Notes under the pieces: model-generated
The model's database searches: none
What the model was told of the DNA's origin: nothing
The model's input: only the letters and a program-made list of their open reading frames with translations
NCBI GenBank assembly: GCA_003153315.1
Contig: PLYA01000036.1
Span: 205,858 to 237,857 of the forward strand
DNA: 32,000 nt
DNA from: Bacteroidota bacterium
GTDB lineage: Bacteria; Bacteroidota; Bacteroidia; B-17B0; Aurantibacillaceae
Direction: 5' to 3'
Translations under genes and position numbers: made by a program
Part shown: piece by piece, positions 2,362-31,486 of the stretch
Layout: every line of letters starts with the position of its first letter
How positions within the stretch are numbered: position 1 is the first letter of the stretch

Positions 2362-4428
2362 TTATTTATCACTCGGCGCATCTTCAATTTTATCTGCGTC
2401 TTCTTCATTCAATACTTTAGGGTGATATTTAGGAATATCTGTTTTAGGCGCTTTAGGATCTACATAATCCCAACTGATAATTTTAAATACTGTACGACGG
2501 TTTAACTGGTGCAAAGCTTCTTTTTCTTCTTTTGTTTTTGCTTTTGTTATTTGAGCATCCGTAATTTTTAATTTTCTTTTGCCATAACCTTTTGCAACCA
2601 TACGTTCTACAGGTATTCCTTTAGAAACTAAATAATCAACACAAGATTGCGCACGTGCCTGAGATAATTTTTCGTTTAAAGCTGCATTACCACGACTATC
2701 TGTATGCGCACTTAACTCAATGATAATAGTTGGGTTATCTGTTAAGGTTTTAAATAAGAAATTAAGCGAGTCTTTTGATTCAGGCTTCAAATCTGCTTTA
2801 CCCAATTCGTACTGAACGGCAGGGAAACGAATTTCTCCTTCGGGTACCGGCTTTAATTCAAAATCTTTTTTAAAGTTGGTAGATTCCATAATATCAATCG
2901 TGCTGAATTTTCCTTTGTCTTCTGATGCAAAGAAACTTCTTGGCGCGGTTGGTGTTTTTAAATCTTTATTGGTTTGCGTGTAAATCTCATAAGAAACCTG
3001 TGGTTTTAAAGGAAGCGTATAGGCACCGTCTTTATCGGTAGTAACCTGTGCCAATGTTCCGTCAGAACCTTTAATGATAATAGGGCAATTAGGAATAACC
3101 GTTTTATCTTCCATGTTTGTAACAACACCCGACGCGTTGAACACTAATGGTGGAAGATAGAAAGACCAAATATCATCTTCTCCTTTGCCACCTTCTCTAT
3201 CAGAAGATAGATAACCGCGGTCTTTATTTCCATCATAAATAATTCCAAAATCATCATGCGGAGAATTCATCGGGTATTTTAAGTTCTCTGCCTGTCCGCT
3301 AAAACTACCGTCTTTAGCTGCCACAATTTTGTAGATATCCAATCCGCCCATACCAAGCATAGCATCGGAAGAGAAAAATAAGGTTTTGTTATCGGCATGC
3401 ATATAAGGGAAACCTTCGTTACCGGCTGTGTTAACTGATGCGCCTAAGTTAACAGGCTGACCCCAAGCTTTATCTTTTTTAGAGAATGTGCTTTTCCAGA
3501 TATCATAATGTCCTTTTCCACCGGTCATGTTAGATGAGAAATACAAAGTACCTCCATCAGGAGAAAGGGCCGGGTTGTTGAACTGAAAGCTATCAATATC
3601 AAAAGAGATAGGGGTTGGTTCTGCCCAACTTGGTCCTTGTTTGTTTGATATATAAAGCTGGCATTTCATTTGTTTCTTTTTGGCTTCTCCGCAACGGGTA
3701 AAAATCATAAAGGTTCCTTTTTTATCCACCACAGCGCAACCTTCGTTAACACCGCTGCTTATTGGAGGCCCAAGTGGTGCAGGTGTGCTCCACTTTCCGT
3801 CTTTACCAAGTTTTGTTTCAAAAATATCCGAGTGAAAATCGCCTGTTGTACCATCAGCCTTGCCATCGCCGGTAGCACCATCTCTGGTTGAAGTAAACCA
3901 TAAAGTAGAATTTTTCTTGTCGGAAAAAGCAGGAGAATAATCCGCTTCTTTGCTGTTTATCATGCCCATGTTGTCAATTTTATGACGGGTTGGGCTATCC
4001 ACCCATTTTTGAGCCAATTCGCAGGATTTAATCTCATCTTCTGCACGTTGGTCTGAGGGCACTTCTTTTTTGTAAGCTTCAAAAGATGCAATAGCTTCAT
4101 TATACAGTTTTTGCTCTTTTTTTATTTCTCCGATATAAAAATTACACTTAGGATCGGGGTATTTTGCAGCAATTGCCTTTTGATAAAAGGTTATAGCCTC
4201 ATTCAGGTCATTAATCTTGTGATAACAAACAGCTGTACGGAAAAGAATTTTTGCCTTTTTTTCGGCTTTTTTCTCTTTAACGTAGGCTTTTTTATACCAA
4301 TCGATGGCGGTAAAATATTCTTGTGCAATAAACGCATTATCAGCTTCTTTTAAAGTGTTTTTTTGGGCAAAACCATTCATAAAAACAGCTATCGTAAATA
4401 CAAGAGCCAGTGTAATTTTCTTCATCAT
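2362..4428 (-). CDS. OmpA-family outer-membrane/periplasmic protein with N-terminal TPR and PD40 (TolB-like beta-propeller) repeats
   Basis: Signal peptide MMKKITLALVFTIAVFMNGFAQ. TPR-like YFTAIDWYKKAY region. Repeated DYSPAFS / LYFSSN / LFFSSD PD40 motifs. C-terminal OmpA motif AHTDSRGNAALNEKLSQARAQSCVDYLVSKGI. Confidence 0.9.
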   Translation of the reverse strand: MMKKITLALVFTIAVFMNGFAQKNTLKEADNAFIAQEYFTAIDWYKKAYVKEKKAEKKAKILFRTAVCYHKINDLNEAITFYQKAIAAKYPDPKCNFYIGEIKKEQKLYNEAIASFEAYKKEVPSDQRAEDEIKSCELAQKWVDSPTRHKIDNMGMINSKEADYSPAFSDKKNSTLWFTSTRDGATGDGKADGTTGDFHSDIFETKLGKDGKWSTPAPLGPPISSGVNEGCAVVDKKGTFMIFTRCGEAKKKQMKCQLYISNKQGPSWAEPTPISFDIDSFQFNNPALSPDGGTLYFSSNMTGGKGHYDIWKSTFSKKDKAWGQPVNLGASVNTAGNEGFPYMHADNKTLFFSSDAMLGMGGLDIYKIVAAKDGSFSGQAENLKYPMNSPHDDFGIIYDGNKDRGYLSSDREGGKGEDDIWSFYLPPLVFNASGVVTNMEDKTVIPNCPIIIKGSDGTLAQVTTDKDGAYTLPLKPQVSYEIYTQTNKDLKTPTAPRSFFASEDKGKFSTIDIMESTNFKKDFELKPVPEGEIRFPAVQYELGKADLKPESKDSLNFLFKTLTDNPTIIIELSAHTDSRGNAALNEKLSQARAQSCVDYLVSKGIPVERMVAKGYGKRKLKITDAQITKAKTKEEKEALHQLNRRTVFKIISWDYVDPKAPKTDIPKYHPKVLNEEDADKIEDAPSDK

Positions 4429-4526
4429 AATTTAGATATTATTAAAAATAAACAGCCGCTAAAGTAACAATTAATGTTAATTCCAAAAACTTTTTTTATT
4501 TTTTATGGAAATTGCGTCAAATAAAA

Positions 4527-4552
4527 AGTCCCTCTCTTTTAAGAGAAGGACT
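4527..4552 (-). terminator. Rho-independent terminator of orphan gene 4575-5330
   Basis: Imperfect hairpin agtccctctctttt/aagagaaggact. On the minus strand it is followed by TTTTTATTT. It lies 23 nt after the TAA at 4575-4577. Confidence 0.6.
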
Positions 4553-4574
4553 TTTAGTTTATAGTTATAATTTA

Positions 4575-5330
4575 TTAAGAAATAACCACCCTAAACACTT
4601 TGGTGGGAGTACCCATCACGGCTTTTTTGCCTTTGCCTTTTTCTTGCATATAAAACAGGGCTGCCATGCCTTCTTCGGCTTCGGTAAAGTTGGCGGTAAG
4701 GGTGCCGCGTACCAAATCACCCAGGTAGGTATAGCCCGAAGTTTTTACCGCAGGGTCGGGTATGGTGGTTAGGTTGGCGGCCTGTATCAGTATAAATATC
4801 ATGGCTTCTTTTACGCCTTTGCGCTTGGCTTTGCTGGTGGTGCCGGGGTAGTTAATTTCAATTTCTATGCTTAGGTGTATTTGGTGTTTCATGCTAAGGT
4901 ACATGGGCAGCAGCTTGCCGGTTGCCTCGGTGCTTATGGTAGAGGTGGTACGCGTGCCACTTGGCACGGTAATGCGCATAGCTTTTTTTTGCGTAGCCGT
5001 TACCCGTTTATTATTGGCAATATAACTTTTTATAAACATACGGATACTGGTATCGGTACCAATTTTTACATTGCCGCTTTCATAGGCTTGGCGTGCTCCT
5101 TTTAGCTCGGTTTCATTACTGTGTTTAAATTCTTTGCTGCTTACTATTGCCCAAGCGGCTTGCCAACGGGCTTGTTTCACATTTCCGGTGCCTGTAAGGG
5201 TTGCCCAATCAGCAACGGCATCGCTGTTCCAGTTCCAACCGGCTTTAAAAGCGTTTACCTGATTTACAAAGTTAATTTCCCAAGCGGCAAACTCGGCGTT
5301 GGGGGCGGGGATAAAATCATGATCTGGCAT
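4575..5330 (-). CDS. orphan protein (helical N-terminal half, beta-rich C-terminal half); module-1 gene downstream of the 21-bp array
   Basis: 251-aa ORF, visibly more GC-rich than its neighbours, with an ATG start and its own terminator. No family recognised. In-frame TAA stops upstream of the ATG exclude an extension into the repeat array. Confidence 0.75.
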   Translation of the reverse strand: MPDHDFIPAPNAEFAAWEINFVNQVNAFKAGWNWNSDAVADWATLTGTGNVKQARWQAAWAIVSSKEFKHSNETELKGARQAYESGNVKIGTDTSIRMFIKSYIANNKRVTATQKKAMRITVPSGTRTTSTISTEATGKLLPMYLSMKHQIHLSIEIEINYPGTTSKAKRKGVKEAMIFILIQAANLTTIPDPAVKTSGYTYLGDLVRGTLTANFTEAEEGMAALFYMQEKGKGKKAVMGTPTKVFRVVIS

Positions 5331-5368
5331 GGCTATTTGGTTTTAGAGGTTAACGGATTAGTTTTAAG

Positions 5369-5578
5369 GACGTTCCCTGAAACTTTGCAGACACGTCCTG
5401 AAGATAATTGGGCATGTCCTGAAGGTAACTGGACACGTCCTGATAATACGAGGACACGTCCTGATGAAACGAGGGCATGTCCTGATGAAACGAGGGCATG
5501 TCCTGAAGGTAACCGGACACGTCCTGACGATAACTGGACACGCCCTGATGAAACAAGGACATATCCTGAAACTTGTTT
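5369..5578 (-). repeat. array 1: 10 head-to-tail direct repeats, exact 21-bp period
   Basis: Plus-strand units start at 5369, 5390, 5411, 5432, 5453, 5474, 5495, 5516, 5537 and 5558. Examples: gacacgtcctgatgaaacgag and ggcatgtcctgaaggtaactg. Consensus GRCAYGTCCTGA + 9 variable nt. No indels between units. Confidence 0.95.
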
Positions 5579-5807
5579 GCTAACCCCTACTATATAGTTC
5601 GGCAAGCTCACTAACAAGTGTGGGGTTTTAGGCATCTTCTCTATGTATGTGGTTGTTTTCATTTTGTTACAGTAAAATTAACGAAAAATAGTTGAAACTC
5701 TTTCATTAAGTTTTCAACCGTTGGCGGGGGTGCGGTTCGCATCTTTTTCAATGTTTTAGGGGCTTGTATCGGTATAATCTTATTTTATAGGGACGGCGCT
5801 TTTTGAG

Positions 5808-5815
5808 TATATTTG
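5808..5815 (+). promoter_or_regulatory. candidate Bacteroidota -7 promoter box (TAnnTTTG)
   Basis: TATATTTG matches the consensus exactly and ends 7 nt before the ATG at 5823. No convincing -33 TTG was checked. Confidence 0.3.
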
Positions 5816-5822
5816 CTTTGAA

Positions 5823-6455
5823 ATGAAATATTTCTTGCCTCTATTTCTGTTGTTTGTTTTAGCCTCTTGTTCTGTACAAAAAAGATTATACAACAAAGGT
5901 TTTTATGTAAGCAAAAGCCAGCCTACTAATAAGGCTGATATTATAAAAGATACTGCTAAACAAGCTTCTTTATTACACACCATAAAACAAAAGAAAGAAA
6001 CTAATGCTCCCTTGCTTGCTACAGCCGTTAAAGCAATTGCGGTTATTACTAAAAAACAAAATCTCTTACAAGACCCTTGCGATACTATTGTGATGAAAAC
6101 GGGAGAAAAGATTTTAGGTAAAGTAACTAAAGTAAAAGAAGATAAAGTGTTTTTTGAAAATTGTGATGGACAGGGCTATTCAAGCTCTTCTATTCATAAA
6201 GCAGATATTGGTCGTATATCTTATGCTAATGTAAAGCAAAAAACTCAAATTGATAATGGAAAGAAAAGTACTTTTTTCATCGTGAAACTTATTGTATTCC
6301 TTTTATTAATTCTCTGTTTAGTGACAATACTCTTTGTGCGCAATTCTTCATCATCATTTGGACTGGTAGTGTATTTGTTTTTTGCATCAATATTCCTTTT
6401 AATTGCATTAGCTATTATGTTACTTATTACCTTAATTCTGTGGATTACCAATTAA
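5823..6455 (+). CDS. hypothetical lipoprotein with C-terminal transmembrane helices
   Basis: Lipobox-like N-terminus MKYFLPLFLLFVLASCS. Two hydrophobic helices at the C-terminus (FFIVKLIVFLLLILCLVTILF and VVYLFFASIFLLIALAIMLLITLILWI). Confidence 0.7.
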   Translation: MKYFLPLFLLFVLASCSVQKRLYNKGFYVSKSQPTNKADIIKDTAKQASLLHTIKQKKETNAPLLATAVKAIAVITKKQNLLQDPCDTIVMKTGEKILGKVTKVKEDKVFFENCDGQGYSSSSIHKADIGRISYANVKQKTQIDNGKKSTFFIVKLIVFLLLILCLVTILFVRNSSSSFGLVVYLFFASIFLLIALAIMLLITLILWITN

Positions 6456-15934: not shown

Positions 15935-16690
15935 ATGCGCAAGAAAATTGTTGCTGCCAACTGGAAAATGAACAAGACTTTACAAGAAGCCCAAGCTCTT
16001 GTAAAAACTATTCTTTCTGGTTCGGGCAGTAATAACGAGGTTACTAAAATAATCATACCCCCTGCCCTGTTCATTACCGAACTTACTCACTTAACAAAGG
16101 AAAATCCTTCCTTTTCTATCGGCGCACAAAACTGTTATCATGCAGAAAGTGGTGCCTTCACAGGAGAGTTAAGCGCCTCTGCCATAGCTTCTTGTGGAGC
16201 TAAGTACCTCATTATTGGTCATTCCGAGCGCCGCCAATATTTTAACGAAACAGCCGATCAACTAAAACAAAAAATAAACCTCGCACTCAAACACAAACTA
16301 ATTCCTATTTATTGTGTGGGCGAAAAACTAAACGAACGCCAAACCAACCATTATTTTACGGCCGTAAAAAACCAGATACAGGAAGTTCTTTTTCATTTAC
16401 CCGAAACAGATATTGAAAACATTATCATTGCCTACGAACCCGTTTGGGCAATAGGCACCGGCTTAAACGCTACTCCCGAACAGGCTCAGGAAATGCATTC
16501 CTTTATTCGGTTTGCAATTATGGAAAAATATGGGGCCGATGTTTCCAATAAAATTAGTATCTTGTATGGCGGTAGTTGCAATGCCAAAAACGCTAAAGAG
16601 TTATTTGCTTGTGCTGATGTAGATGGCGGCTTAATTGGCGGGGCATCCTTAGTTGCTGAAGAGTTTTTACAAATCACTAATTCATTTTAA
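15935..16690 (+). CDS. tpiA: triosephosphate isomerase
   Basis: AANWKMN, IGHSERR and AYEPVWAIGTG signature motifs. Confidence 0.95.
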   Translation: MRKKIVAANWKMNKTLQEAQALVKTILSGSGSNNEVTKIIIPPALFITELTHLTKENPSFSIGAQNCYHAESGAFTGELSASAIASCGAKYLIIGHSERRQYFNETADQLKQKINLALKHKLIPIYCVGEKLNERQTNHYFTAVKNQIQEVLFHLPETDIENIIIAYEPVWAIGTGLNATPEQAQEMHSFIRFAIMEKYGADVSNKISILYGGSCNAKNAKELFACADVDGGLIGGASLVAEEFLQITNSF

Positions 16691-20189: not shown

Positions 20190-21044
20190 ATGAAACAACA
20201 AAACGCCATACAACTATTCGAAGACAAAAAGGTAAGAACCCTTTGGGATGCCGAGCAAGAAAAATGGTACATATCCATTATTGATGTTATTGAAATATTA
20301 ACCAATACCGATAGACCCCGAAAATACTGGAGCGATTTAAAAACCAAACTTAAAAACGAAGGAAGCGAGTTGTCCGAAAAAATCGGACAACTGAAAATGC
20401 AATCTGCCGATGGAAAATACTACAAAACAGATGTAGCTGATACAGAGCAGCTTTTCAGGCTTATACAATCTATACCCTCGCCAAAAGCCGAGCCCTTTAA
20501 ACTATGGCTGGCGCAGGTTGCCAACGAGCGGTTAGACGAAATGCAAGACCCCGAACTTGGTATAGACCGCGCGCTGGAACAATACCTACTACTGGGCTAC
20601 TCCGAAAACTGGATAAACCAACGCCTTAAAAGTATTGAAATAAGAAAAGAACTTACCGACGAGTGGAAAAAACGGGGCTTAAAACAAGGGCAACAATTTG
20701 CCACCCTTACTGATATTATTACCAAAGCTTGGGCGGGCAAAACCACCAAAGAGTATAAGGTGTTGAAAGGTTTAAAAAAAGAAAACCTTAGAGATAACAT
20801 GACCAACACCGAACTTATTTTAAACATGCTTGCCGAAGCTTCTGCAAAAGATATTTCTCAAGCTGTAAACCCCAAGGGTTTTTCGGCAAGTAAAAAAGTT
20901 GCCGCACAGGGCGGCAATGTAGCCAAAGTAGCACGCAAAGAACTGGAAGCCAAAACAGGCAAAAAGGTGGTAACAGCCTTAAATGCAAAAGCCGTTTTGC
21001 AACAAAACAAAAGCGCGAAAAACCTGGGCACAAAAAAGAAATAA
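20190..21044 (+). CDS. Bro-N domain / DinD-like (DNA-damage-inducible protein D family) protein
   Basis: N-terminal Bro-N-like VRTLWDAEQEKWYISIIDVIEIL, then the conserved block DVADTEQLFRLIQSIPSPKAEPFKLWLAQVANERLDE. The C-terminal NMTNTELILNMLAEA region parallels E. coli DinD. Confidence 0.8.
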   Translation: MKQQNAIQLFEDKKVRTLWDAEQEKWYISIIDVIEILTNTDRPRKYWSDLKTKLKNEGSELSEKIGQLKMQSADGKYYKTDVADTEQLFRLIQSIPSPKAEPFKLWLAQVANERLDEMQDPELGIDRALEQYLLLGYSENWINQRLKSIEIRKELTDEWKKRGLKQGQQFATLTDIITKAWAGKTTKEYKVLKGLKKENLRDNMTNTELILNMLAEASAKDISQAVNPKGFSASKKVAAQGGNVAKVARKELEAKTGKKVVTALNAKAVLQQNKSAKNLGTKKK

Positions 21045-21048
21045 GTAA

Positions 21049-21098
21049 AACCTTAAACCCTCCTCACATAACTTTCGTTTATCATTCGCTCCACATCC
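21049..21098. repeat. left 50-bp direct repeat; detached copy of the 3' end of the HTH gene (21696-21956)
   Basis: aaccttaaaccctcctcacataactttcgtttatcattcgctccacatcc matches 21692-21741 at 47/50. Its reverse complement reads DVERMINESYVRRV*. Confidence 0.85.
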
Positions 21099-21123
21099 AA
21101 ACAACCAAACACAACTAATTATA

Positions 21124-21180
21124 CCCTTCGACAGGCTCAGGGTACGGAAGCCACTCGGTCGTTGAGCTTGTCGAAACGCC
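21124..21180 (+). repeat. REP-type long hairpin element (copy A)
   Basis: Stem ttcgacaggctca (21127-21139) / tgagcttgtcgaa (21163-21175) with one G-T position. A nearly identical copy lies at 21631-21686. Confidence 0.8.
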
Positions 21181-21218
21181 CGAAGCAAATAATAAAAAAT
21201 ATCCCTACTTTTATAATC

Positions 21219-21518
21219 ATGAAGGGCTATATGTATATATTACAATGCGCCAATGGGTTTTATTATACTGGCAGCACTATAGATTTAGGGCTTCGTATTA
21301 AACAACATCAGAATGGAGAGGGGGCTAATTTTACAAAAAAGCACTTACCCGTTGTTTTAGTTTATTTCGAAGAGTTTCAAAGAATTGATGAAGCATTTAA
21401 TAGAGAGAAACAAGTACAAGGCTGGAGCCGAAAAAAGAAAGAAGCATTAATTAATAGCGAGTACAACAAACTCCCCGAACTGTCTAAGAATTATACACAA
21501 TATAAAGCAGATGATTAA
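21219..21518 (+). CDS. GIY-YIG nuclease family protein (UPF0213/Slx1-like, about 100 aa)
   Basis: MKGYMYILQCANGFYYTGSTIDLGLRIKQHQNG...EAFNREKQVQGWSRKKKEALI contains the GIY..YTG, R, and E..K.W.R motifs. ATG 21219 is chosen because the track start at 21162 is a TTG inside the REP element. Confidence 0.85.
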   Translation: MKGYMYILQCANGFYYTGSTIDLGLRIKQHQNGEGANFTKKHLPVVLVYFEEFQRIDEAFNREKQVQGWSRKKKEALINSEYNKLPELSKNYTQYKADD

Positions 21519-22169: not shown

Positions 22170-22236
22170 CCAAGGGTTTTGATAATAAAAGCAAAACCGG
22201 AAAAAGAAATCTTACCAAAAAAACTTAAAAGTATGA

Positions 22237-22530
22237 CTGATTTTGCAAAACACCCACATGATTTAGCAAAAAGTGTAACCGGCTTAACAAATTGTACGGA
22301 CGATTTCTCAAAAAGTATGAGCGTGTTTAAAAATCATGTACCCAATTTTAAAAAACATCTGCATGATTTAGTAAAAGGTATAAACGATTTGATAAATCAG
22401 TTGAACGATTCATCAAATCTTCCGCACGACTTTGCAAAAAGCACGCAAGCGTTGCAAAAACATTCAACCGATTTGCGAAATCGTTTGCACGATTTACTAA
22501 AAAGTATGTACGTCTTTGCAAATCGTATAA
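22237..22530 (+). repeat. array 2: 14 head-to-tail direct repeats, exact 21-bp period
   Basis: Units start at 22237 + 21n. Examples: acgactttgcaaaaagcacgc, acgatttactaaaaagtatgt, ccgatttgcgaaatcgtttgc. Consensus aCGATTTgCAAAAAg + about 6 variable nt. No indels. Confidence 0.9.
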
Positions 22531-22640
22531 CAAAAAACATAAGAGCTGTTTTTTACAGGAATAAAAGTCCGCCGCGGCGCAAAAACGTAAACTTCATTTC
22601 TTATAACCTGATAATTATTAACTATAAAAAACCAAAAAAT

Positions 22641-23321
22641 ATGTCCAATCCAAAAGCAGCATTAAACATGCCCAATAAAATAGGCGATAAAATAATACGC
22701 GCCCAATCTATACAAACCAAGCTTACAGGAAACGCCAATTTCCCTGTTGGTAGTTGGCCTGCCAACATAGTAAGTTTAACCCAGTTTGGTACCGATGTTA
22801 CGACGCTAGTAACTACCGAAACGGCGGTTGTAAATAAAACAGGCACGGTGGCAGCACGAAACGCCGCTCTTACCGTAGTACTAACCGACCTGCGCGCATT
22901 AAAAACCATGGTGCAGGTAAAAGCCGATGCCAACCCGGCTAATGCAGCTAATATTATTATAAGCGCAGGGTTTATTGTAGTAACGCGCAGCAATCATAGT
23001 AAAAGGCAAAACCAGGCCTTAAACACCGAGGTACTTGGCACCGTATTGCTTACTGCCGATAAAGGAGGGCACCACGAGTGGCAAATGAGCAAAGATGGCG
23101 GAACCACCATTGTTAATCTGCCCGCTACCACTACCAGCATTACAAAAGTAACAGGCCTAAACCCGGGCGATGTATGGTATTTTAGGAACCGTAAAGTGAA
23201 CACTAAAAAAACCACTTATAACTGGAGTACCTGGCTTAAGTTAATTATAGGTCCGGGTGGAAAAACCACAGGAGGTGGAAACCAATCGGGTGTGGCTGGT
23301 AGTTTACCAAATACTTTATAA
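22641..23321 (+). CDS. orphan protein with helical N-terminal half and Fn3-like C-terminal beta-sandwich; module-2 gene
   Basis: ATG 22641 (MSNPKAALNMPNK). The C-terminal HEWQMSKDGGTTIVNLPATTTSITKVTGLNPGDVWYFRNRK...YNWSTW resembles an Fn3 signature. More GC-rich than the surroundings and has its own terminator. The track ORF extends upstream to 22167 through the repeat array (alternative ATG at 22233). Confidence 0.72.
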   Translation: MSNPKAALNMPNKIGDKIIRAQSIQTKLTGNANFPVGSWPANIVSLTQFGTDVTTLVTTETAVVNKTGTVAARNAALTVVLTDLRALKTMVQVKADANPANAANIIISAGFIVVTRSNHSKRQNQALNTEVLGTVLLTADKGGHHEWQMSKDGGTTIVNLPATTTSITKVTGLNPGDVWYFRNRKVNTKKTTYNWSTWLKLIIGPGGKTTGGGNQSGVAGSLPNTL

Positions 23322-29798: not shown

Positions 29799-31486
29799 CA
29801 ATCAACCGATTTTTCTTTTTTCGACTTATCCTTCTTAGTGTCTTCTTTTGGTTGATTCGTTTTCGTGTCTTGAAAAACTTTTAAATTATCTTCCAGTGCA
29901 GGCACATCTCTTCCGTCCCATTTCACTTCTTCTCCGTTTCTATATGTAATAGTTAGTACTAAAAAATTATTTTCATCAAAGTAATTCCAGTTACCATCTT
30001 TTTGTCCGCCCACATACTTACCGCTTGCTTGGGGTTTTCCGTTTTCATAATAGTATGTATGTTTTCCATCAGGTTCTCCATTTAAAAATCCACCCTCAAA
30101 CCTCAGTTTATTTTCCTTTACATAATAGGCTTTCCATACACTATCTGGCATGCCATTATGATACACACCATTTTCTTTATAATTTAATATTTGATAAAAC
30201 CACGGTCCTTCTTTATCACCATCTAAATACTCTCCTTTAGTAATTAGTTTTCCATCTTCTGTATATTCCTCATATTCTCCTTCTAATTTATCGTTCTGGT
30301 AGTTTTCTTTCATTAAAACGTTTCCATTATTATAGTACCAATTCCAGGGTCCTTGCAAACGGCCTTTTTTATCATACTTCCCTTTTTGTTCTATTTTTTG
30401 ATTTGGGTAAAAGAATTCCCAACTACCTATACGTTTATCATCAACATAAGTGCCTTTAGAACGAAACTCTCCGGTAATGTTATATTCTATCCACTCTTTT
30501 TGGCGACGACGTAAAGAATCAACCGGGCCACGTTCTATTAAATATCCTTCTTGAAAATTGAAAGCCGAATCGGCTACAGAAATATTAAAACAACGAAATT
30601 GTTTTTCATTTGCCTCTAATGAATCTATATAAACTAAAACGGTATCGCATCTGCGAGATAGATGATATTTATAATGTGTACCCATAGGAACACCGTTTAC
30701 ATAACCACCTTCATACTTTACATTACCATCATCAAAATACGCTTTAAAAACATCTAATTTAGCAAGCTCAGGAGCATCTTTTATTTCTTTACCAAATGCG
30801 TATTTTTTTATATCATCTAAATTTCCTTTTCTATCATACTCTTTTACATAACCATCAACAGCACCATCTTTATAACGCTCTTCTTTTTTTATAGCACCAT
30901 TACTGTAAAATTTCTTCCACATACCCTGCTTAACTCCATTTTCATCAGTTTGATTTATTTTTTCTTGTTTTTCTATATAACCCATTTTGTAGTGAATTAT
31001 ATTAGTTACAAGAGTATCTGGAGAATATATATATGATACACCATCAGCTTTACCGTTTTTAAACGGAATGTTTTGTTTTACCAACCCTGTTTTATAATAA
31101 ATGTATGATGTATCTTGTTTTAAATCGTTCACATAATTTTCTTTAGAAACAATTATTCCGGCAGAATCATACGTTGTGATGTACCCATTTTTTTTACCTT
31201 TTGAGTAATTAAATGTTTTTGTTAACTGTCCTTTTTCGTTATAAAACTTCCAAATACTATCTAAAAGAAATTCTTTACGATTACCTTCGTTTTTTAATAT
31301 TCCGGTTTTATAATAGTTTTTCCAATAACCATCAGCTTTACCATTTTTCATGGTTCCTTCTGATGATTTTTTTCCATTATCGAAATAAAAAATATTGTAT
31401 CCGTTTTTAGCAGTTGTAGAATCGCTTTTTTGAGCGTACCCTATAAAAAAATTAAAAACTAAAATTACTATTAAGGCCTTCTTCAT
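29798..31486 (-). CDS. MORN-repeat-variant (YwqK-like) secreted protein
   Basis: Signal peptide MKKALIVILVFNFFIGYAQ. About 20 repeats of the G.W..YY.NG / G..DG type. The TGA stop shares one base with the kinase ATG (TGATG). Confidence 0.85.
   Translation of the reverse strand: MKKALIVILVFNFFIGYAQKSDSTTAKNGYNIFYFDNGKKSSEGTMKNGKADGYWKNYYKTGILKNEGNRKEFLLDSIWKFYNEKGQLTKTFNYSKGKKNGYITTYDSAGIIVSKENYVNDLKQDTSYIYYKTGLVKQNIPFKNGKADGVSYIYSPDTLVTNIIHYKMGYIEKQEKINQTDENGVKQGMWKKFYSNGAIKKEERYKDGAVDGYVKEYDRKGNLDDIKKYAFGKEIKDAPELAKLDVFKAYFDDGNVKYEGGYVNGVPMGTHYKYHLSRRCDTVLVYIDSLEANEKQFRCFNISVADSAFNFQEGYLIERGPVDSLRRRQKEWIEYNITGEFRSKGTYVDDKRIGSWEFFYPNQKIEQKGKYDKKGRLQGPWNWYYNNGNVLMKENYQNDKLEGEYEEYTEDGKLITKGEYLDGDKEGPWFYQILNYKENGVYHNGMPDSVWKAYYVKENKLRFEGGFLNGEPDGKHTYYYENGKPQASGKYVGGQKDGNWNYFDENNFLVLTITYRNGEEVKWDGRDVPALEDNLKVFQDTKTNQPKEDTKKDKSKKEKSVD

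Follow-up and report, generated by a model that had tools for sequence, protein, structure and literature searches.

A strictly phased array of direct repeats lies just upstream of a gene in the window (the whole 32-kb stretch of DNA that was analysed here), and raises the question of whether such repeats act as DNA, as RNA or as coding sequence. The original prediction had described ten units in strict 21-bp phase and without indels, placed 38 bp upstream of and on the same strand as an orphan gene at 4575-5330, and had taken the array to be non-coding. The physical description proved accurate. Read directly, the region 5369..5578 (minus strand) consists of exactly ten 21-nt units of seven codons each, the same as those first listed; the heads stay in register when the sequence is printed as 21-nt rows, indicating that the array contains no indels, and TRF reports periods of 21, 63 and 84 across 5390-5571 with 0% indels in the 84-nt row. 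Strand and distance follow from the coordinates, with a gap of 38 nt between the array end at 5369 and the gene ATG at 5330 (minus strand), and the in-frame TAA that had been predicted to lie between the two is found four codons upstream of the ATG.

Read along the gene strand, the units open with the head TCAGGAC(G/A)TG(T/C)CC, followed by a variable tail. The head GRCAYGTCCTGA has nine plus-strand matches at exact 21-nt spacing (seven exact and two with one mismatch), the first unit of the array being without a plus-strand match at two or fewer mismatches, and two minus-strand matches with two mismatches, one overlapping that first unit (5365-5376) and one outside the array (16486-16497). 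These 11 matches at up to two mismatches compare with 2.57 expected by chance, and 11 were reached in none of 100 shuffles. The repeat does not behave as a dispersed element of the REP/BIME type, since outside the array the head occurs in the 32-kb window only at 16486-16497, which is within chance expectation. A CRISPR array was likewise rejected, as the 21-mers directly abut one another, with variation in their 9-nt tails, and none of the flanking genes that were checked is a cas gene.

The gene downstream of the array (4575..5330, minus strand) encodes a protein of 251 aa with a helical N-terminal domain and an FN3-like beta-sandwich as the C-terminal domain. The AF2 model (pLDDT 68.5) shows both domains, Foldseek matches the sandwich to FN3 domains, and a basic loop, SKAKRKGVKE, is conserved within it. 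The gene can no longer be called an orphan: 48 close homologues were found, all of them unannotated Bacteroidia MAG or peat-metagenome proteins, together with 192 cluster representatives in a library of 1.84 billion proteins. Two N-terminal domain types occur in the family, joined to one common C-terminal domain. Pfam, PHROGs, PADLOC and NCBIfam hold no family for this partner protein or for the upstream reading frame described below (ORF1), a profile search of PDB sequences with the partner protein gave nothing meaningful, no relatives were found on viral contigs, and neither family searches nor AF2/Foldseek revealed a DNA-binding fold or family in the protein.

The original prediction had proposed to tabulate whether arrays always precede homologues of this protein, and the positional link is indeed strong. 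In a comparative set of 36 loci, a 21-nt-period array lies just 5' of the gene at nearly every family-1 locus for which upstream sequence is available; arrays precede nearly every homologue examined, including those of about 38% identity (L026/L027) and of about 20% identity (L029, from a Prevotellaceae MAG). The arrays typically comprise about 8-12 units, and the unit sequence is different in each: the head motif of the window was absent from the first 21 homologous loci compared, and an ortholog of the window's own array type was not found among the 36. One MAG carries four cassettes and another two, and the flanking genes vary from RadA-like and OmpA/TPR genes in the window to a release factor and T9SS cargo at other loci, which together indicate a self-contained, multi-copy cassette. 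Literature searches returned no description of it. On scaffold L036, runs of N fall exactly at the arrays (1069-1093 and 1322-1332), where two different arrays and their leader junctions are joined, indicating that the repeats break short-read assemblies and that the family is probably under-sampled. Six loci (L002-L007, from CAVXOV01 and CAJCJB01) carry the title 'Candidatus Saccharibacteria' and are probably mislabelled or mis-binned; the L002 and L006 contigs encode T9SS C-terminal sorting domains, Ig_7/CHU_C and PD40/TPR genes, and the L003 contig shares 78-93% nucleotide identity with this Bacteroidia-like window.

A period of 21 bp is also a period of seven codons, and the array accordingly encodes about ten Ser/Thr-rich heptads. 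It lies within an open reading frame, ORF1 (5333..5662, minus strand), whose 109 codons comprise a leader, the ten heptads and a short tail. ORF1 starts at an ATG at 5660-5662, with a second conserved in-frame ATG at 5633-5635, and stops at a TAG at 5333-5335, 2 nt ahead of the ATG of the partner gene; in its frame, the units read as heptads of the SGRVQLS, SGRVRLP and SGHALVS type. Homology of the leader fixes the frame independently of the array at 11 loci, and in 11 of 11 it is open from the conserved ATG through the array, with a stop 2-40 nt before the gene. At most other loci examined, ORF1 ends -4 to 45 nt from the gene ATG. The Prevotellaceae homologue (about 20% identity) has an AT-rich array within an open frame of 125 codons that stops 6 nt before the ATG, and at L023 ORF1 was called by a gene caller. 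A period that is a multiple of three without frame-breaking indels, as expected of a coding tandem repeat, was seen in the window and, with few exceptions, at the homologous loci examined.

To what extent this frame is open by chance was assessed in 19 arrays by permuting each alignment column among the units. The ORF1 frame is open in all 19, against 8.1 expected (joint P about 1e-12), and multiplying the per-locus values of the 11 homology-anchored loci alone gives about 6e-9. The two remaining sense frames behave as chance predicts, one being open in 4 arrays where 2.2 would be expected and the other in 6 where 6.7 would be. The view of the array as non-coding is therefore difficult to sustain, given that it sits inside an ORF with a conserved start and that stop codons are avoided in the frame of that ORF across 19 divergent arrays. 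The frame also has a compositional signature: Ser and Thr make up 23% of residues in the ORF1 frame but 14% when the others are read (a bias seen in 15 of 19 arrays; p=0.0005), Pro and Asp are scarce, and at one position of the 'GYS' heptads serine is encoded by AGC as well as by TCC/TCA. ORF1 has no signal peptide. Exceptions to the general layout are L022, which has lost the leader and the start codon and kept the array; L026/L027 and L029, which have no ATG upstream of the array; and L011, where a stop in the 11th unit closes the frame 127 nt short of the gene.

The amino acid sequence itself carries little sign of constraint. The synonymous fraction among units is 0.15, 0.15 and 0.13 in the three frames, so that no codon-type conservation was detected, and the three codon positions do not differ in column entropy (0.749, 0.775 and 0.747 bits for positions 1, 2 and 3; p=0.90). 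Between the orthologous arrays of L008 and L022, 44 of 224 nt differ, distributed 18/14/12 over the codon positions, whereas the differences in the adjacent gene fall 29/14/57; the divergence of the array is close to the fourfold-site divergence of 0.25 in that gene, indicating a roughly neutral rate. On this point, namely that variation in the array lacks a codon pattern, the original prediction was correct. A search with the ORF1 protein gave no matches among 5.8 billion proteins, its AF2 model is of low confidence (pLDDT 43.6) and uninformative, and the heptads are chemically so different between arrays (basic, acidic or hydrophobic) that a common fold is doubtful. In the leader, by comparison, conservation includes the synonymous sites, so that the constraint would seem to act on the nucleotides rather than on a peptide. 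At the junction of leader and array (TATATAGTAGGGGTTAGCAAACAAGTTTC, 5568..5596, minus strand), conservation at the nucleotide level extends to both leader types, and the 3' end is kept even in L022, in which the rest of the leader has been lost.

A near-neutral rate of divergence, the absence of codon bias and a varying copy number would all be expected of a neutral minisatellite, that is, of hairpin-prone units that grow by slippage and template switching in a dispensable spacer and have no function. Template switching at quasipalindromes could moreover mimic compensatory changes. We nevertheless regard this explanation as the most improbable of those considered, because even homologues of about 20% identity still have an array upstream, its copy number stays within a narrow range of about 8-12 units, the avoidance of stop codons is confined to one frame, and the heads remain uniform within an array while the tails diverge.

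The uniformity of the heads is part of a second layer of signal, at the level of the nucleotides. The heads are dyads with arms of 4-6 bp flanking a 2-bp spacer: AGGAC-GT-GTCCT in the window, and further AGGGA-GT-TCCCT, CAGGGA-TG-TCCCTG, GCGGCTATAGCCGC, AACCGGTTAA and GCAGCAAGCTTGCTGC. Across 20 arrays such dyads are enriched relative to column-permuted arrays (Fisher p 7e-9, Stouffer z 7.8); taken alone, the array of the window does not reach significance (z 0.47). At the two inner pairs of the head, the units of three related arrays covary, with 80% of cells paired against 72.8% in shuffles, a score that was reached by none of 500 shuffles and for which slid controls gave lower values. Arrays also fold better than dinucleotide shuffles, with a mean z of -4.2 for the sense and -4.1 for the antisense strand in 20 arrays, and with a z of -6.4 for the array region of the window. 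In L010 and L011 complementary heads alternate along the array, which fits pairing from unit to unit better than a single protein-binding site. The suggestion of a function at the DNA or RNA level thus stands as far as a nucleotide layer is concerned (dyads, covariation and folding), but the array is not purely non-coding.

The main rival to the interpretation that we favor is a purely regulatory translated leader, in which neighboring heads pair into a chain of hairpins and the peptide is functionless, ORF1 being translated only to melt the structure, to deliver ribosomes to the gene start or to protect the leader. It would accommodate arrays that fold far better than shuffles, dyad-symmetric heads with covariation, the alternation of complementary heads in L010 and L011, the avoidance of stop codons though the amino acid sequence is unconstrained, the conserved synonymous sites of the leader and the short distance between ORF1 stop and gene ATG at most loci examined. 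It sits less well with folding scores that are equal on both strands and do not single out the sense RNA, with an ORF1 frame that is consistently rich in Ser/Thr and poor in Pro and Asp, with a region at the gene's own start that on direct reading is A-rich and seemingly unstructured, and with L022, which has an array but no start codon; to our knowledge, there is also no precedent for a translated leader of ten hairpins. We consider this explanation possible but on balance doubtful. Of the options in the original prediction, the repeat-structured 5' leader comes closer to what was observed, provided it is added that this leader seems to be translated.

The same dyads could alternatively be read at the level of double-stranded DNA, as a protein-loading array (an operator, iteron or centromere-like site) with a dimeric protein on each head. 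A 21-bp period corresponds to two helical turns and places the heads on one face of the helix, the 4-6 bp arms around a 2-bp spacer are of a suitable form, and self-complementarity that is equal on both strands is what a duplex-level signal would produce. On the other side, no HTH, RHH, Rep or Par protein is encoded in the cassette and the partner protein is helical and FN3-like, so that no cognate binder was found for what the original prediction had called an iteron-, operator- or centromere-like array; the heads do not co-vary with the adjacent protein, proteins of 92% identity being preceded by unrelated heads; a separate binder would be needed for each of the two to four or more cassettes per genome; alternating complementary heads misfit a single dyad site; and the avoidance of stop codons is left unexplained. 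The context is also chromosomal, with flanking genes that vary between loci, rather than one of replicon maintenance. Taken together, these points make a DNA-loading array improbable.

The independence of repeat and protein is best illustrated by pairs of closely related loci. Between the window and L008 the upstream region is 87.5% identical and the gene 92% identical (fourfold-site divergence 0.22), yet the arrays cannot be aligned; the window protein and P0001 are 92% identical and stand beside unrelated heads. L003 is syntenic with the window (RadA and OmpA-like flanks, 78-93% identity), but its array is of a different sequence and its protein has the alternative N-terminal domain. Next to identical proteins, copy number shifts in whole units, standing at about 7 in L026 and about 10 in L027, and L018 and L019 carry mosaic arrays of two unit types. 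Two further candidates were rejected on such comparisons: a CsrA-type GGA motif (CAGGAC), because the heads of other arrays are unrelated, and attenuation by repeated regulatory codons, because cassettes with the same partner protein repeat different codons.

Conservation resumes outside the array. Between cassettes, nucleotide conservation covers about 170 nt upstream of ORF1, as a block at 5663..5830 (minus strand; 82-91% identity) that contains the invariant ACTATTTTTCGTTAATTTTACTGTA and the motif CGTCCCTATAAAATAAG and that we presume to be a control region. A possible ORF0 of 30 codons (MKKMRTAPPPTVENLMKEFQLFFVNFTVTK, 5659-5751, minus strand), whose TGA overlaps the ORF1 ATG as ATGA, is in frame in six of six type-A leaders; given that it includes a 25-nt block invariant at the nucleotide level, the region may instead be a promoter or operator. 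A divergent gene for a lipoprotein-like protein of 210 aa (5823..6455, plus strand) has its ATG inside the conserved block, as well as a TAnnTTTG-type box, TATATTTG, at about 5808-5815; in other cassettes, the same divergent ATG opens unrelated signal-peptide ORFs or stubs of 4-10 codons. A conserved terminator hairpin just upstream of ORF1 (GTTGAAAACT...AGTTTCAAC) was considered and rejected, the pairing not being kept in L008 and L021. At the other end, direct reading shows a hairpin followed by a T-run about 20 nt past the stop of the partner gene (4516..4555, minus strand), which is likely to be the terminator of the cassette. An Rfam scan of 4400-6000 gave only sub-threshold terminator-like matches, those of the terminator type lying at 4512-4611 on the minus strand.

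We suggest that the array is the repeat body of a translated, hypervariable and hairpin-prone heptad-repeat ORF, probably coupled to the FN3-like partner protein, and place the probability of this explanation at about one half. The original prediction as a whole would then be partly supported, in the positional linkage and the nucleotide-level layer but not in the non-coding claim or in the idea of an iteron or operator. The cassette would be bicistronic and self-contained, running from the conserved control block through ORF1 and the gene for the 251-aa protein to the terminator, and it recurs in several copies per genome of uncultured Bacteroidia. Ribosomes would begin at the conserved ORF1 ATG, read on through the ten repeats and terminate 2 nt ahead of the gene ATG (-4 to 45 nt in most other loci examined), and this termination would probably bring about translational coupling of the partner protein to ORF1. 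Selection would keep the frame open and the 12-nt heads uniform and self-complementary within one array, the amino acid sequence not being conserved. Self-complementary heads would allow the units to pair with one another as RNA or as single-stranded DNA, and we infer that such pairing leads to slippage, to gene conversion and to wholesale replacement of arrays between cassettes. The outcome would be an ORF1 that serves as the hypervariable partner of a conserved protein, with which its product may interact physically.

If this explanation is right, the cassette represents an undescribed two-gene module that recurs in uncultured Bacteroidia, with an upstream cistron that conserves only 'seven codons, no stops, self-complementary head' and whose sequence is swapped between near-identical loci. 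The combination of frame-only selection, nucleotide-level dyads and cassette-like hypervariability beside a conserved FN3-like protein is unusual, and would provide a concrete case of a sequence constrained at the RNA or DNA level and at the level of translation together. It also shows why annotation often misses such small ORFs and why such arrays break assemblies. A stronger version, which we advance tentatively and hold to be rather unlikely, is that the array is under selection in two capacities, as nucleic acid whose repeats pair with each other and as a heptad repeat that is translated, and forms a rapidly exchangeable 'specificity module' for the FN3-like protein. One possibility for the role of such a dual-layer element is intracellular recognition or defence, in which the partner protein would bind its own hairpin-array RNA or repeat peptide; a system of this kind could be parallel in function to type III toxin-antitoxin (TA) or other RNA-protein systems and yet be unrelated to described families.

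The window contains a second 21-nt-phased array (22221-22535, plus strand) of about 15 degenerate units with the head TT(T/A)GCAAA(A), of which the palindrome TTTGCAAA is a part. The array is open in one frame (heptads D-F/L-x-K-x-x-x), with no stop before the gene for a 226-aa protein at 22641-23321, and the gene caller fused array and gene into the 362-aa P0194. The 226-aa protein belongs to another unannotated Bacteroidia family; homology between it and the 251-aa protein was not detectable, and two more distant members of its family that were checked (about 60-66% identity) showed no clear array. Just upstream of this second cassette, at 20190-21518, lie genes for a BRO-N domain protein and a GIY-YIG nuclease, the source contig also having an HTH_17 gene there, which hints at a neighborhood that is mobile or phage-derived. 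A further lag-21 autocorrelation, at 30686-30862 (minus strand), falls inside a 562-aa ORF whose translation is by eye Gly/Tyr/Asn-rich and repetitive, and appears to be a coding repeat of the usual kind, with no connection to the cassette.

Several known systems resemble the cassette in part. Iteron and ParR-parC-type arrays consist of about ten helically phased direct repeats upstream of a gene, some with dyad heads; the cassette differs from them in having no cognate DNA-binding protein, in being chromosomal and multi-copy, and in carrying its array within open-frame, presumably transcribed sequence. Leader-peptide and attenuation uORFs are short upstream ORFs in the same transcript with a stop that abuts the downstream start, and here too ribosomes could melt structure in the leader RNA. 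ORF1, however, has 100-110 codons, far longer than classical leader peptides, and the cassette combines ten hairpin-forming units with no terminator/antiterminator pair and no link to amino acid biosynthesis.

In type III TA loci (toxIN, cptIN and tenpIN), a protein gene is immediately preceded by tandem repeats on its own strand, and a transcriptional terminator between repeats and gene is among the criteria for recognizing them (PMC3401426). The cassette shares the upstream same-strand array, the conserved architecture and the locus-specific repeat sequence, and could on these grounds be read as a relative, in which a repeat RNA cut into 21-nt units neutralizes the downstream protein. We judge this highly improbable: no hairpin with a T-run, and hence no terminator, is present between array and gene (5331-5368); the partner protein has an FN3-like fold with no match to ToxN, CptN, TenpN or PADLOC models, and thus is no ToxN-like endoribonuclease; the units are of 21 nt, against 36 nt in ToxI, and sit in a maintained, seemingly translated ORF; and repeats that do not track the protein sequence, being unrelated beside 92%-identical proteins, argue against a specific pairing of RNA and protein.

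At the level of the peptide, a similarity exists to the ice-binding heptad beta-roll of Lolium perenne (PDB 3ULT; PF21300), with whose ..VSGS.. 7-residue repeats the ORF1 of L023 (SGSSLQV) aligns in register (E 1.1e-5 against 3ULT; 28.8 bits against PF21300, with a cut-off of 30). The SGRVxLS heptads of the window are of the same general type, but window ORF1 reaches 13.3 bits against PF21300 at that cut-off and has no 3ULT match, and the cassette differs from the beta-roll in that the similarity is one of low complexity, other cassettes have chemically unrelated heptads and a secretion signal is lacking. The L023 ORF1 (2683-2994) also reaches Pfam DUF6944, with 32.6 bits against a cut-off of 32.

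Coding minisatellites and VNTRs of repeat proteins and contingency loci, finally, offer a comparison at the level of the repeat itself. The cassette departs from them in showing no codon-position signature of purifying selection, in the outright replacement of the repeat where the neighboring genes are about 90% identical, in its dyad heads and in being a small upstream cistron rather than a surface protein. What it has in common with them is a period that is a multiple of three within an ORF that is kept open, copy-number change by whole units (as between L026 and L027) and the concerted evolution of units within a locus.
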